Notes under the pieces: generated by a model
Seen by the model: only the letters and a program-made list of their open reading frames with translations
The model's database searches: none
Told to the model about the DNA's origin: nothing
In this document: positions 1,421 to 5,710 of the stretch, piece by piece
How positions within the stretch are numbered: position 1 is the stretch's first letter
Layout: each line of letters begins with the position of its first letter
Virus record (IMG/VR): IMGVR_UViG_3300027138_000030
Location: 1-25,538 of that record
Length of the DNA: 25,538 nt
Direction: 5' to 3' (one strand)
DNA from: a virus
Lineage: Duplodnaviria > Caudoviricetes
Translations under genes and position numbers: made by a program

Positions 1421-3472
1421 CTAATTATCCAAACTGGATTTCAACCAAACCCAATTTGACCCAATGACAATCTTATTTACGCTAACAAGACGCTCCCTAG
1501 CACGAAGCCATGCTTTCTTAAAGGCCGTCTTATCATCCTCAGTACACCCTTTCATAGACCAGAATTCGGCTCTCCAATCGTCCAAACTGACTCCATACCT
1601 ACTAGTACCATCTACTTCACTGTATGTTCCTTTAGACTTAATCACTTTCATTAACGAATCCATCTCAATCCGCTGATTGTTGCCGCTACCTGAGTTGTTT
1701 TTAGACCCTTTAGGCTTGTCATTTGCGATGTCGGGGTTGTGCCTGATGGCTAATGAGGTGGTAATTTCAAACCCAAGGTCTGATGTTCCAATCTCCACCA
1801 GCACGATTTCAATGCCGATCTGGATGCTATCTGCACCGTCTTTTTGTTTGCTAACGGTCAAGATTGCGTTACCTATGACGCTTGAATCTGCTGAGTTGAT
1901 AACTGAATCCTGCCGCTGTATCTCAAGTTCAGTGTCTACAGCACCTAGCAAGGAGCTATGACCTCGCAAGCCCTTACTGATGTCCTTACCACTATGATGA
2001 ATTACCATCAAGGCACATTCGAAGAGTTCTTGGAGTTTTCCTGCTTGGGTGATGAATGCACCCATGTCTTCAGAACTGTTCTCGTTAAATCCACCGCCAG
2101 ACATACGCATCAGGGTATCAAGGATGATGATCTCTAAAGGTTCACCTATCTCAGCTATCAGGTCATTGATTGCGTTGAGTAGTTCTATGAAGTCTTCGGG
2201 ACTTGATCTCAGGTTGAGTTGCGCCCTGATGATGTACAGGTTTGCGCCATCTGGACTTTGATTCTGTATCTTGCAAGCCTTCACCCTTGCGCCCATACCG
2301 CCATGACCCTCACCACATATATATAAGACTGCGCCTTTCTTGGGTATCTTGTAACCCATCCAATCTCTGCCTGTTGCAATCGCCTCTGCCAAATCAAGGG
2401 AGATGAATGACTTGTATGAGGCAGGGGGTGCGTAGAGAGCTACAAATGCTTTCTTCGGGACAATTGACTGCACGAGCCACTCAACTGGCTCATCTTTAAT
2501 TGAGTCCCAAGACTCGACCAGTAATCTGGAGGGTTTTGCTTCTTTGACGGTAGCACTAGATTCTTTTGGTTGTGGCTCAGGCACATAATCATGCAGCCTT
2601 GATGGTTGCCATACATCTTCTACAGACTTGACGATAGGACAGGCTTTTGCCAGTTGTGCCAACAGCGACCTTGAACCGTCATACCTATTGACCCACTCAT
2701 AGGCATCTTCCTTGGGTTGAGTAAGGGGTAAATCCAAGACCCTGATGCTCTTTGTGCTACCTGATCCAAGTAAGGACTCAACAATCTTATGGGCGTAACC
2801 CCATCCAGCGGCATCATTGTCGGGAACTATCACGACATTTGCGCCAGCAAAGTACTGGTTCAAGTCCTGATTCCAACCACCAGCACCAGCGTGAGAGGTG
2901 GTCGCCACTACCCCAAGACTGCATAAGCTATCTGCCGCTTTCTCACCCTCAGTTATATATATGACTCTGCCATCGGCAATTGCTTGTCGCAGTTCGGGGA
3001 GTCGGTAGGGGATGATGCGGCAGTCACCTAACTTGCCTACTCGACTGCCATCGGGCATGACTCGTAAGGTCTTATATGTCTTTCCTTTGATGTCATTGGT
3101 CTTATATCTTTGCTTGAGAAAGAGGGAGATGCCGTCCTCATCAACGTAATGCCATTCATGCTCAAGTGTCATGACTGTCGGGGTTGTGGCCTGTGAACTG
3201 TTAGATATCGGCTTGATGCTGGACAGGTATTCAGGTCTATCTGGTAGCTGCGGGAGTATGCCCATGTCCTTGATGGTGCTGAACACTGTGTGCTGGTCGC
3301 AGCCACCGTGACATTTGAAGAGGTAATTCCCGTCAACTGATTCGGTGATGGATAGGGATGGATGCTTATCTCCCTTACCTTGACCGTGATCGGGTACGGG
3401 GCATGATGCTAGGTAACCATTGCCTACCTTTTTTGCATTGCCCAAGGTAGTGGCTATTTGTTGTGCTGACAT
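1421..3472 (-). CDS. Primase-helicase (N-terminal Zn finger, TOPRIM domain, RecA-like AAA_25/RepA-type helicase)
   Basis: CPVPDH...CHGGC zinc finger; TOPRIM motifs ITEGEKAAD and VPDND; variant Walker A APPASYKS, Walker B IIILDTL, HHSGKD and LRGHSSL. Confidence 0.92.
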   Translation of the reverse strand: MSAQQIATTLGNAKKVGNGYLASCPVPDHGQGKGDKHPSLSITESVDGNYLFKCHGGCDQHTVFSTIKDMGILPQLPDRPEYLSSIKPISNSSQATTPTVMTLEHEWHYVDEDGISLFLKQRYKTNDIKGKTYKTLRVMPDGSRVGKLGDCRIIPYRLPELRQAIADGRVIYITEGEKAADSLCSLGVVATTSHAGAGGWNQDLNQYFAGANVVIVPDNDAAGWGYAHKIVESLLGSGSTKSIRVLDLPLTQPKEDAYEWVNRYDGSRSLLAQLAKACPIVKSVEDVWQPSRLHDYVPEPQPKESSATVKEAKPSRLLVESWDSIKDEPVEWLVQSIVPKKAFVALYAPPASYKSFISLDLAEAIATGRDWMGYKIPKKGAVLYICGEGHGGMGARVKACKIQNQSPDGANLYIIRAQLNLRSSPEDFIELLNAINDLIAEIGEPLEIIILDTLMRMSGGGFNENSSEDMGAFITQAGKLQELFECALMVIHHSGKDISKGLRGHSSLLGAVDTELEIQRQDSVINSADSSVIGNAILTVSKQKDGADSIQIGIEIVLVEIGTSDLGFEITTSLAIRHNPDIANDKPKGSKNNSGSGNNQRIEMDSLMKVIKSKGTYSEVDGTSRYGVSLDDWRAEFWSMKGCTEDDKTAFKKAWLRARERLVSVNKIVIGSNWVWLKSSLDN

Positions 3473-4291
3473 TTAGTTATCTTTCTGTGAGTATTCGCCA
3501 TGCTGTTGCAGCACATAATGGGACTTGTCCATTTCCAATGGCTTTAAGTCTGTCCACCCTAGCGGCCACCCCATCAGCCACTCGACCCACATCGGGTTCA
3601 ATTTTCCACCAGCTTGAGCCGCAAGCGTAGGAGTATTTCTGTTCATTTCGCTCGGCGCATTCGTTTCTTTTGAATTGTGTGCTGTTGGGGTTGTAAACTT
3701 CTCCCTCAATGCCACAACTTCCTCTAAATTGCCCTTGTGACCCTTTTCTATGTCCAATCTGATTTTTACTGGCCGGGTCATTTGACATCTTGGGGTAGGC
3801 CATGTTTGTTCCGACAATCCAGATTCTGTCCCTCTGATGGTTTGCTCCAACGTTAGCTGCTCCCAACACTCCCCATTTCGCATCAAACCCCATTGAGGCC
3901 AAGTCTCCGAGAACTCGTCCAAGTCCCCTAGAAGTGAGCATTGGTGAGTTTTCCACGAACACGAATCTGGGTCGTACTTCACGAATGATGCGAGCCATTT
4001 CTGACCACATCCCTGATCGTTCTCCGTCAATTCCTGCGCCTTTTCCTGCGGCACTGATGTCCTGGCATGGAAACCCGCCAGATACGACATCAACAATTCC
4101 TCGCCAAGGTTTTCCGTCAAAGGTTTGTACGTCATCCCAAATCGGGAAAGGCGGGAGAAGACCATCATTTTGTCGGGCGCACAATACGCTTGCTGGATAG
4201 GCTTCCCACTCGACTGCACAGACTGTTCTCCATCCAAGCAACTTGCCGCCGAGTATTCCTCCACCAGCGCCTGCGAATAAAGCCAACTCAT
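3473..4291 (-). CDS. Alternative-frame beta polypeptide of the C5-MTase (motif IX and TRD-like segments)
   Basis: 272-aa open frame overlapping the MTase in the +1 frame. LNPMWVEWLMGWPLGWT resembles motif IX; its stop abuts the primase ATG. Same design as M.EcoHK31I alpha/beta. Confidence 0.75.
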   Translation of the reverse strand: MSWLYSQALVEEYSAASCLDGEQSVQSSGKPIQQAYCAPDKMMVFSRLSRFGMTYKPLTENLGEELLMSYLAGFHARTSVPQEKAQELTENDQGCGQKWLASFVKYDPDSCSWKTHQCSLLGDLDEFSETWPQWGLMRNGECWEQLTLEQTIRGTESGLSEQTWPTPRCQMTRPVKIRLDIEKGHKGNLEEVVALREKFTTPTAHNSKETNAPSEMNRNTPTLAAQAGGKLNPMWVEWLMGWPLGWTDLKPLEMDKSHYVLQQHGEYSQKDN

Positions 4292-4295
4292 TCAT
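3477..4295 (-). CDS. C5-cytosine DNA methyltransferase, catalytic (alpha) polypeptide lacking motif IX
   Basis: Motif I LFAGAGG, IV GGFPCQD, VI ENSP, VIII HQRDRIW, X RLKAIGNGQVP. Start re-called at MNELALF; 272 aa. Confidence 0.93.
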   Translation of the reverse strand: MNELALFAGAGGGILGGKLLGWRTVCAVEWEAYPASVLCARQNDGLLPPFPIWDDVQTFDGKPWRGIVDVVSGGFPCQDISAAGKGAGIDGERSGMWSEMARIIREVRPRFVFVENSPMLTSRGLGRVLGDLASMGFDAKWGVLGAANVGANHQRDRIWIVGTNMAYPKMSNDPASKNQIGHRKGSQGQFRGSCGIEGEVYNPNSTQFKRNECAERNEQKYSYACGSSWWKIEPDVGRVADGVAARVDRLKAIGNGQVPLCAATAWRILTER

Positions 4296-4319
4296 ACCAC
4301 CTACCAAAGTTAAAGAGAC

Positions 4320-4353
4320 AAAAAAACCAGAGTTCTCCCCCGAAAACTCTGGT
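4320..4353 (-). terminator. Rho-independent terminator after the SSB-like gene
   Basis: Minus strand ACCAGAGUUUUC-GGGG-GAGAACUCUGGU followed by a U tract. Confidence 0.85.
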
Positions 4354-4370: not shown

Positions 4371-4970
4371 TTAACTAAACATCTCATCATCATCCATTGC
4401 TGGTGTAGTTACTGGCTTGGCCTTGATAGGGCTAGGTGCTGGTTTAGCGGGTACTGGTGCTGAGATTTCGGGATCAAAGCCGCCTGAGTTGTCATCTGAC
4501 AATGCCGCTGGTCTTGCTACCCAACCCGTTACGTTGAACTCAGGTACACGAGTGCTACCTTTACCAACCTTTTCGGGTCTACTACCCTTGTACTCCACCA
4601 CTGGCAACTTGCCAGCGTTAGCAGATGCCTGTGCTTGCACTTGTTTCCATAAAGCCTCTAAGCCCATGTTTGCACCCGCACCGTTGGCACTGTACTCAAC
4701 AACACCCATTGTCTTGTTGAAGAAAGTTGCTTTGAATCCACGCTTATGCTCGGCACTTGGCTGAGAACCTTTCTGACCAAGACTGCCATCAGGGAAGAAT
4801 TCAAAGATGCCAGTAGCAATCAGCAACCAACCTGTTTCAAGGTTCTCATGGTCAAAGACAAACTTCTCTAAGATGAACTCGCCATCTTGGTTTGACCATG
4901 CGTTTGCTTGTGGGCTGAATCTAATGTAGTTACCGTTACCACCGCCTGAGTTACTGAGGTTTAAATTCAC
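4371..4970 (-). CDS. Putative single-stranded DNA-binding protein (199 aa)
   Basis: GTG start at 4970 with SD AAAGGA; Pro-rich linker and acidic tail ending DDDEMFS; lies between nuclease and primase. Confidence 0.65.
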   Translation of the reverse strand: MNLNLSNSGGGNGNYIRFSPQANAWSNQDGEFILEKFVFDHENLETGWLLIATGIFEFFPDGSLGQKGSQPSAEHKRGFKATFFNKTMGVVEYSANGAGANMGLEALWKQVQAQASANAGKLPVVEYKGSRPEKVGKGSTRVPEFNVTGWVARPAALSDDNSGGFDPEISAPVPAKPAPSPIKAKPVTTPAMDDDEMFS

Positions 4971-5023
4971 AATGTTTCCTTTTAAAAGTTTTAAGAATGT
5001 GACAGATGTCACGGTTGGGGGAT

Positions 5024-5710
5024 TCATATTAAAGATGTTTGTTCTTGCTTGGGTCTTACATCCTCAAATAATCTTGGTTGCGCTACTGCTTGTTCTATGC
5101 GTTGGCAAGCAATGTCAAAGTATTTAGGTTCACGCTCAATGCCAATGAACTTGCGTCCCATCTGGATAGCGGCTACGCCTGTAGTGCCGCTTCCCATGAA
5201 GGGGTCGAGGATTGTTTCTGATTTTGGGCATAGGGTAATTACCCATTTCATAACCTCAAGCGGCTTTTGTGTTGGGTGATAGCGTTCTTCATTACCTTGA
5301 CGAATCATGCCATTCCATCGCCACTGAAGTCTACGAACAGCTTTATCCCAATTAGTCCATGCAAGTTCACAATCGGCAAAATCGTTGTCACCATTCAATT
5401 TGTCCCATACAAGCCAGCATGACGTAGGAGGTAATGTGAAATAGTTTCCACCAAAAAATGCTTGGTGTTGTCCTTTTGTGCGTATTAAATCAATCAGTTC
5501 ATTTGATGGCGGTGCTTTGTCCCAATCAAAATCACCATAGTCTTTTGGAGCCGCCAACTTTCCACGGCTTGCAACTTTTTTACTGTTTTCATTGATCCCA
5601 TAAGGTGGGTCAGTAATCACCGCATCAACCTTTGGCAAGGTTGGCAGAATGTCCATGCAATCCCCCAAGTACAGGGTTGCATCTCCGATTGTTTCGATTC
5701 TTGTATTCAT
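5024..5710 (-). CDS. Orphan N6-adenine/N4-cytosine DNA methyltransferase (beta class)
   Basis: DPPY precedes HPTQKP and DPFMGSGTTG; no adjacent restriction endonuclease recognised. Confidence 0.93.
   Translation of the reverse strand: MNTRIETIGDATLYLGDCMDILPTLPKVDAVITDPPYGINENSKKVASRGKLAAPKDYGDFDWDKAPPSNELIDLIRTKGQHQAFFGGNYFTLPPTSCWLVWDKLNGDNDFADCELAWTNWDKAVRRLQWRWNGMIRQGNEERYHPTQKPLEVMKWVITLCPKSETILDPFMGSGTTGVAAIQMGRKFIGIEREPKYFDIACQRIEQAVAQPRLFEDVRPKQEQTSLI

Follow-up and report, generated by a model that had tools for sequence, protein, structure and literature searches.

Can one stretch of phage DNA, read in two frames from end to end, encode both chains of a single enzyme? The question is raised by a gene on the minus strand of a 25.5-kb linear virus record (the window: the whole stretch of 25,538 nucleotides that was analysed; completeness estimate 73%), in which genes for capsid, SU10 adaptor, endolysin, exonuclease, RuvC-like resolvase and a second, N6/N4 methyltransferase are also found. 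The first-pass annotation had proposed that a C5-methyltransferase (C5-MTase) is dual-coded here over its full length, as two 272-aa products offset by 4 nt, and both the coordinates and our null models confirm this. To our knowledge, same-strand overlaps of more than 800 nt in which both frames are selected as protein, and which run across the active site of an enzyme, are rare. We refer to the catalytic frame as alpha and to its +1 frame as beta, and the locus is laid out as follows.

3477..4295, minus strand: alpha ORF (C5-MTase catalytic chain, 272 aa), with motifs I-VIII at residues 4-161, catalytic Cys77, and motif X at about 249-270
4295-4293, minus strand: alpha ATG
3479-3477, minus strand: alpha stop
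3473..4291, minus strand: beta ORF (272 aa, +1 frame of alpha), with an N-terminal arm, two WPTP cassettes and a motif IX-like segment
4291-4289, minus strand: beta ATG
3475-3473, minus strand: beta stop
4001..4291, minus strand: N-terminal arm of beta, approximately residues 1-97, which overlies alpha motifs I-V; constrained at the protein level and absent from the EcoHK31I-type beta
3698..3802, minus strand: beta cassette 1 (W164-K198), likely target-recognition module
3602..3697, minus strand: beta cassette 2 (F199-K230), with PTLA at 221-224
3551..3601, minus strand: beta motif IX-like segment (L231-T247), predicted to pack on alpha motif X
3615..3809, minus strand: alpha variable region (about residues 163-227), an unconserved linker whose DNA is shared with the beta cassettes
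4296..4305, minus strand: Shine-Dalgarno-like site GGTAGGTGGT, common to both ORFs, at an aligned spacing of 3 nt from the alpha start and 7 nt from the beta start
4316..4353, minus strand: terminator-like hairpin (12-pair stem and T run) that separates the methyltransferase from the gene upstream, a consensus match only
1421..3472, minus strand: primase/helicase gene (AAA_25, phrog_239), whose ATG at 3472 abuts the beta stop

Read on the minus strand, the two starts are interleaved as ATGAATGAG directly behind GGTAGGTGGT, and the ends read TAA-C-TAA-ATG into the primase/helicase gene. The hairpin at 4316-4353 (minus) lies directly 5' of the methyltransferase and primase genes, whose expression may depend on read-through or on a separate promoter. 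Upstream, a 218-aa gene at 4371-5027 (minus) has no match in Pfam, PHROG or NCBIfam; its product has an acidic C-terminal tail (DDDEMFS), which we take to resemble that of phage single-stranded DNA-binding proteins. The N6/N4 DNA methyltransferase, whose family provides the control set used below, lies two genes upstream of the C5 gene at 5024-5710 (minus). No restriction endonuclease gene was found beside the C5 gene among the 20 ORFs scanned.

Alpha looks like the catalytic part of a C5-MTase. The motif labels I-X follow the established C5-MTase numbering, applied through PF00145 and an alignment to M.HhaI. Residues 4-179 match Pfam PF00145 (E = 2.5e-32, 113 bits), residues 4-161 align with M.HhaI (E = 6.7e-13), and the chain also matches phrog_363. 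The motifs shared by C5-MTases of PF00145, namely I, IV (PC), VI (EN), VIII and X, are all present as LFAGAGG (I), GFPCQ (IV), ENS (VI), QRDRIWI (VIII) and RLKAIGNGQVP (X). No IX-like stretch was found in alpha, and the target-recognition domain (TRD) and motif IX that would stand between VIII and X of the same chain are missing, which agrees with the first-pass reading of this frame as carrying I, IV, VI, VIII and X without IX. Residues 163-227 show no conservation, with a high content of S, G, R, Q and E and a pN/pS of 2.06. Modelled alone with AlphaFold2, alpha is of low confidence (pLDDT 54.0, pTM 0.51), with pLDDT below 50 in the variable stretch. Judged by its substitution pattern, the variable region of alpha is a passive linker, read through the beta cassettes.

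The +1 frame of this gene stays open beyond what chance predicts. In a null model that fixes the alpha protein, applies the codon usage of the window's phage and counts +1 stops, 4.9 stops are expected over codons 2-160 and none is seen (P0 = 0.002); over the whole alpha gene 8.8 are expected, and 0 of 20,000 resamplings was free of stops. A within-gene shuffle gives P values of 0.0085 for codons 2-160 and 0.00005 for the whole gene. Among 14 single-chain C5-MTases with motifs IX and X in frame, a set that left out 14 loci failing the motif filter and 6 without motif IX in frame, the first 150 codons contain 1-10 +1 stops. The first-pass annotation had named stop avoidance among homologues as a check, and it is evident: in the 70 distinct sequences left from the alpha-selected viral loci after removal of duplicates (one from the window, 69 from relatives), alpha codons 2-160 contain 0 +1 stops against about 356 expected, a comparison in which P values overstate independence because the sequences are related. 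A viral set of 80 loci, picked by alpha peptides only, contains 78 that are complete at motif I; in every one of these 78 the beta ATG lies 14 nt before the Phe codon of motif I, and the +1 frame is open to 50 nt or less from the alpha end. Cultured phages encode full-length beta from the same ATG in 8 of 11 cases, and the +1 frame of Che9d, S-H1 and SOVA965 opens only after alpha motif I. Each of the 11 cultured-phage records examined annotates one of the two frames only. By these comparisons, dual coding is real and strongly conserved, end to end over about 820 bases.

Constrained silent sites in alpha and a re-created start in beta indicate that selection acts on the protein sequence of beta. 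Across motifs I-VIII and at matched pN (0.06-0.10), synonymous divergence (pS) is 0.41 in alpha and 0.70 in the N6/N4 MTase family used as control; the alpha value falls to 0.25 where motifs IX and X overlap. Avoidance of +1 stops can act only at codons with a middle T, and our test of four-fold sites used conserved sites without that T. Heterozygosity at these sites is 0.34 (11 of 39 below 0.2) versus 0.59 (0 of 48) in the closest control set, in a comparison of related sequences whose alpha set is slightly closer (87% identity) than the control (84%). The frozen alpha-silent sites fix L4, L9, V10, D20, R47, R50, P57, Q117, D123 and G135 of beta. The pN/pS of the beta frame over motifs I-VIII is about 1 (0.177/0.160), a ratio confounded by the constraint that alpha places on beta third positions. 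The codon for beta Trp3 is lost in 6 of the 78 viral loci, and M-S-W-(L/I) reappears 27 nt upstream, with ATG TCA TGG in place of ATG AGT TGG. A second set of 80 loci was found in GTDB with beta patterns (74 analysable). Because of that choice their open frame is not an independent test; their starts nonetheless vary in the same manner. The canonical beta start is missing in 10 of the 74, eight of which have an upstream MSW, MTW, MAW or VW start; the remaining two (L226 and L229) have MTWYF in translation.

What kind of protein, then, is beta? It matches phrog_1008, labelled DNA methyltransferase (E = 6.6e-24), and searches of Pfam, NCBIfam and PDB sequences with beta and its alignment gave no informative match. 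Folded alone with AlphaFold2, beta is of low confidence (pLDDT 52.9, pTM 0.28, residues 1-55 below 50); a fold search with this model gave no match, and the ESM Atlas returned only unnamed viral clusters. Residues 230-247, KLNPMWVEWLMGWPLGWT, are motif IX-like, and a profile of 12 single-chain motif IX segments, a small one, scored at best 0.9 bits against beta. Given the lack of a Pfam or PDB match and of a score from this profile, the assignment of motif IX and the TRD to beta rests on position, pattern and model. The position is informative. In the mycobacteriophage Darrell (gp82), in L271 and in L226/L229, PTP cassettes, an EWxMG.P segment and motif X follow one another in a single chain, which is the TRD-IX-X order of C5-MTases and so places the cassettes as TRD and EWxMG.P as motif IX. 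The first-pass claim of a motif IX-like segment in the second frame is supported in this way by position and pattern, together with a predicted packing of IX on X.

The segment of beta between the end of motif VIII and the IX-like stretch consists of cassettes beginning (W/F)PTP. The TRD of C5-MTases is located between motifs VIII and IX (PMC5944983). We counted 108 cassettes in 70 betas (32 betas have one, 36 have two and a single beta has four; in one further beta no cassette was detected), which fall into 36 clusters with shuffled order and partners; cassette type 0, for example, stands at positions 1/1, 1/2 and 2/2. Differences within clusters are distributed over the three beta codon positions as 0.22, 0.19 and 0.52, and within-cluster pN/pS is 0.32 in the beta frame versus 2.06 in the alpha frame. 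The window beta has two cassettes, of which the second is of the commonest type (26 of 108), and a close relative of the first is the sole cassette of L174 and L177. Module heads read PTP; cassette 2 also has PTLA, 8-10 residues before motif IX, and cassette 1 is without it. From the published TRD consensus PT(ILV)(TASV), as given in the available text of PMC2413257, WPTP departs, and only the PTLA of cassette 2 fits. As in multispecific phage C5-MTases, exchangeable modules stand in series in the variable region. These patterns make it likely that the WPTP cassettes are DNA-recognition modules of the methyltransferase, and we slightly favour an enzyme that is multispecific through them. The heterodimer proposed in the first-pass annotation is supported in its two-chain design; what it missed is that beta, in whose frame the variable region is selected, carries the likely recognition cassettes while alpha provides a passive linker, the opposite of the division described for M.EcoHK31I. 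A search for long single-chain proteins with WPTP, a weak one with only 38 candidates, found five, all beta-like and none with a catalytic domain.

Long betas occur elsewhere (P0124, P0125, P0126 and P0127), P0124 having many more cassettes in series. The N-terminal half of P0125 contains an insert that resembles a LAGLIDADG homing endonuclease segment. In P0123 the C-terminus of beta is fused to a DUF2800/PD-(D/E)XK exonuclease, possibly through a lost stop codon or an assembly error.

The first-pass annotation also suggested modelling the heterodimer, and the prediction favours one. Three ESMFold2 runs with SAH gave an alpha-beta score of 0.90, against 0.00 for the best of 3 controls; among solved complexes 116 of 157 reach the score mark, and among mismatched pairs 2 of 215 do, a calibration that is only rough with custom alignments. 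At least 76% of contacts agree between runs, and partner pLDDT is at least 63, compared with 33 beside an unrelated protein. The predicted interface includes beta 1-9, 31-53 and 227-253. In the model beta 233-247 packs on alpha 249-260, as IX does on X, and beta L4 touches alpha P51 and I52, with L4-I52 as the most confident contact. Of the cassettes, only cassette 2 (196-208) is in the interface of this model, which was built without DNA. As the same nucleotides encode both chains, contacts near the diagonal (alpha 137-141 with beta 134-137) might be an artefact of the overlap, and the complex score may reflect likeness to solved single-chain C5-MTases. The model supports, but does not show, binding of alpha to beta.

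Both starts lie behind a single Shine-Dalgarno site, as the first-pass annotation had it. In the viral loci the site stands at a median aligned spacing of 2 nt from alpha and 6 nt from beta (site in 45 of 52 loci); in the GTDB loci the median to alpha is 3 nt (52 of 56), so that spacing to beta is 6-7 nt overall; flanking control ORFs have 5 nt (55 of 88). The shared site straddles the usual spacing, which would fit one site serving two starts and slightly favouring beta. An upstream ORF of at least 50 codons ends on the TGA of ATGAATG in 23 of 52 relatives and is so annotated in ABMM1 and S9-5. Coupling from the upstream gene is ruled out in the window, where only 2 codons precede this TGA. 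At the other end, the first-pass observation of TAACTAA followed by the primase ATG is correct for the window and does not extend to the family: an ATG directly follows the last stop in only 4 of 70 distinct sequences, which makes the primase junction local to the window, and the downstream gene varies among the cultured phages examined. We therefore reject coupling to primase as a family trait. RNA contigs at the locus, from 4 of 24 listed runs, are short, of low depth and without information on strand, start or level, and give no evidence either way.

Taken together, we think that the locus most likely encodes an orphan C5-MTase of two chains, made from end-to-end overlapping frames, in which beta functions at full length and bears the recognition cassettes. 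The sequences show the two frames, how well these are conserved, the selection on each and the shuffling of cassettes; the complex is a prediction, and translation, activity, the recognition role of the cassettes and an anti-restriction function are inferred. In such a scheme, ribosomes would start at either ATG from one shared Shine-Dalgarno site and, in many relatives, could also re-initiate after translating an upstream gene whose stop is the TGA of ATGAATG. Alpha and beta chains would assemble and methylate cytosines at a site or sites set by the WPTP cassettes, and methylation would likely shield phage DNA from host restriction enzymes. Gain, loss and exchange of cassettes take place in whole codons, and alpha need only stay open across them to reach motif X. 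Avoidance of GGCC, CGCG, GATC, CCGG, CCWGG and GGWCC in the window (word counts, both strands) is a sign of restriction pressure. The window (1-25538, both strands) also strongly avoids CG and TA dinucleotides, GAAGG and several 6-base palindromes. With so many sites depleted, naming the methylation target from word avoidance is ruled out.

Several other explanations would account for part of these data. That the open +1 frame is a by-product of amino-acid and codon constraints on alpha, with alpha working alone, strikes us as barely credible. It is true that +1 frames have fewer stops than +2 frames (5.3 vs 9.7 per 100 codons in the 12 other window genes) and that language-model look-alike scores can come from shifted frames, but the null models and the stops in all 14 single-chain controls contradict this explanation, and the variable region is selected in the beta frame, not in the alpha frame. 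We also consider it very improbable that the two frames make one chain, for instance by a ribosomal frameshift that joins alpha I-VIII to the beta cassettes and IX. Such a joint would recall single-chain C5-MTases, in which TRD and IX follow VIII, and L189 has a frame switch in its linker. However, a single chain with I-X needs two shifts (0 to +1, then back), the RNA contigs, of thin cover, contain no indels or joints, and a frameshift leaves unexplained why the +1 frame over I-VIII is open and selected and why the beta ATG is invariant.

Alternatively, the enzyme could have two chains of which the functional beta starts at an internal Met (the window beta contains Met42, Met43 and Met53), or its first 100 or so residues could be only a spacer, whose open frame lets ribosomes that begin at the shared start get through to the C-terminal part. 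The beta of M.EcoHK31I tolerates N-terminal deletions, and in-frame internal Met codons also gave activity, according to the available text of PMC2836561; in out-of-clade relatives the open +1 frame begins only past alpha codon 14-21 or further downstream; and the low pLDDT of beta 1-55 and the confounded pN/pS near 1 over motifs I-VIII point the same way. Set against this are the frozen alpha-silent sites that fix L4, L9, V10, D20, R47, R50 and P57, the re-creation of the MSW start upstream in other codons, and the top-confidence predicted contact of beta L4 with alpha I52, and we regard an internal start or a mere spacer as improbable. A milder alternative keeps the two-chain model and its full-length beta but takes the WPTP cassettes as structural repeats, or only the last one as working, so that specificity is single. 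The absence of a profile match to known TRDs, the departure of WPTP from the TL consensus and the restriction of the predicted interface to cassette 2 would all suit it, yet the cassettes occupy the TRD slot, fall into 36 clusters, are found singly as well as in series and shift in position, some betas (P0124) have many, and they are like the recognition domains in multispecific MTases of Bacillus phages in the available text of PMC12707154. We judge single specificity unlikely, and retain recognition by the cassettes of a full-length beta as our reading.

Relatives of the gene are abundant. The beta profile matches 7,999 of 8,000 scored candidates; among the best 120, nearly all lack a name or are labelled hypothetical. 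Relatives occur in many phyla and in cultured phages, whose members include Pseudomonas phage PS-1 and Microcystis phage Mel-JY01. By pattern, 71 of the 75 distinct viral loci that a beta query retrieved have motif X in alpha. In L271, L226/L229 and L369:911-1928 (Darrell gp83/gp82) alpha ends after VIII and motif X is on the beta chain, and L271 and L226/L229 retain the full 5' overlap. Alpha is interrupted in 8 of the 74 beta-selected GTDB loci. In L176 and L294 (80% nucleotide identity) TAA-ATG stands in the alpha linker with the motif X segment intact behind it, and in L174 and L177 (91%) a stop after motif VIII is followed six codons on by an ATG and an intact motif X segment. Both pairs may represent three-chain methyltransferases, or else prophage genes in decay; L189, L210 and L239 seem broken. 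In a tree of 50 alpha cores, which is quick, midpoint-rooted, with long branches and with 26 single-chain loci skipped by the motif filter, 37 full-overlap sequences form one group (SH-aLRT 93) inside a WPTP group (96). Outer members of the WPTP group open the +1 frame at codons 14, 19, 21, 53 and 106, and EcoHK31I lies outside the group. This tree fits a stepwise 5' growth of beta.

Further dual-frame arrangements came to light in the survey. L357 and L361 (G039 and G034) have a 276-aa alpha and a 260-269-codon open +1 frame that ends RWLSGSERLKMMGF, opens near motif I and is without WPTP cassettes; this type is apparently separate from the end-to-end WPTP clade. In Streptococcus phage IPP21 (L371:1039-2130), a single-chain C5-MTase with motif IX in frame nevertheless has a long open +1 frame over IV-VIII, which resembles part of EcoHK31I beta.

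One could envision a wider picture, which as a whole we rate at somewhat less than an even chance: a very large phage family that builds a multispecific methyltransferase from one double-read gene, in which beta grew stepwise at its 5' end across the catalytic motifs until its newly made arm became required, the cassettes form a swappable library, and some members have three chains through stop and restart in the passive linker. More narrowly, both products of the overlap likely form one enzyme. All 11 cultured-phage records annotate one frame only, so the cloning and counting of phage methyltransferases, and the specificities given to them, leave out what is likely their recognition chain. 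The relatives whose overlap is shorter offer a natural series for studying how a function arises in an overprinted segment. Should the cassettes be recognition modules, they would provide a catalogue of exchangeable DNA-reading units and give phages a fast route to track host restriction systems.

In the literature searched, outside which lie most subscription journals and REBASE, we found no description of the end-to-end form with its cassettes. The available texts of PMC11855218, PMC9957025, PMC6070908, PMC8637289, PMC6755750, PMC5056774 and bioRxiv 2022.06.14.493971 do not describe the end-to-end form, and the overlap of ORF13 and ORF14 in phage MM1 is not described in those of PMC8637289 or PMC6755750. 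RANI_51 of Paenibacillus phage Rani ('g50 Internal gene', KP296793) is likewise a +1-frame ORF with WPTP cassettes and the same IX-like segment; unlike beta of the window, it starts 202 nt into alpha, a partial overlap, and is annotated as hypothetical with no subunit role. Temperate Bacillus phages encode multispecific C5-MTases with recognition modules in series (available text of PMC12707154 and PMC2413257). Like these, the enzyme described here is a probable phage orphan C5-MTase with exchangeable modules in series between VIII and IX; theirs is a single chain with TL-type modules, whereas here the modules are of WPTP type and lie in a second frame.

The closest parallels are with two-chain enzymes. 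M.EcoHK31I requires both chains (available text of PMC2836561); its alpha has I-VIII, X and the TRD, and its beta has motif IX in another frame (available text of PMC2836561 and PMC3404938). We compared M.EcoHK31I (E. coli, YGGCCR) through L252, an allele found with a published primer, which encodes a 309-aa alpha and a 176-aa beta starting 310 nt in, in the same +1 frame and with 3 upstream stops in the beta frame. In both systems two chains come from one DNA stretch, with beta in the +1 frame and I-VIII and X on alpha, and the alpha cores align (hhalign probability 99.1, 34% identity, 158 columns); the betas align with a probability of 10.7 over 36 columns, all over conserved alpha motifs. 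The starts are offset by +4 nt here and by +310 nt in L252, and the beta described here spans the whole gene. A restriction endonuclease gene lies beside L252, and none flanks the window gene. The TRD of M.EcoHK31I is in alpha (YTLDSRG in L252; available text of PMC2836561 and PMC3404938), but here it is probably in beta, where the variable region is selected, rather than beta supplying motif IX only. The first-pass annotation had described an extreme EcoHK31I with about 160 overprinted N-terminal residues. The full-length beta stands, but only some 95-100 residues, over motifs I-V, are new, because the beta of M.EcoHK31I already overlaps VI-VIII. The window enzyme most likely works like M.EcoHK31I and belongs to a different family, since in M.EcoHK31I beta begins 310 nt inside alpha and the TRD stays with alpha. 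M.AquI (CYCGRG) is also an alpha/beta C5-MTase, whose small chain has the distal variable region and motifs IX and X (available text of PMC3404938). It shares with our locus two chains and, as assigned here by position and pattern, a variable region and motif IX on the second one; motif X, however, is on alpha in the window and on beta in M.AquI, and the M.AquI-like partition, with IX and X on the small chain, is found in L271, L226/L229 and Darrell gp83/gp82. On these motif assignments, the partition seen in the window, with TRD and IX on beta and X on alpha, lies between those of M.EcoHK31I and M.AquI.
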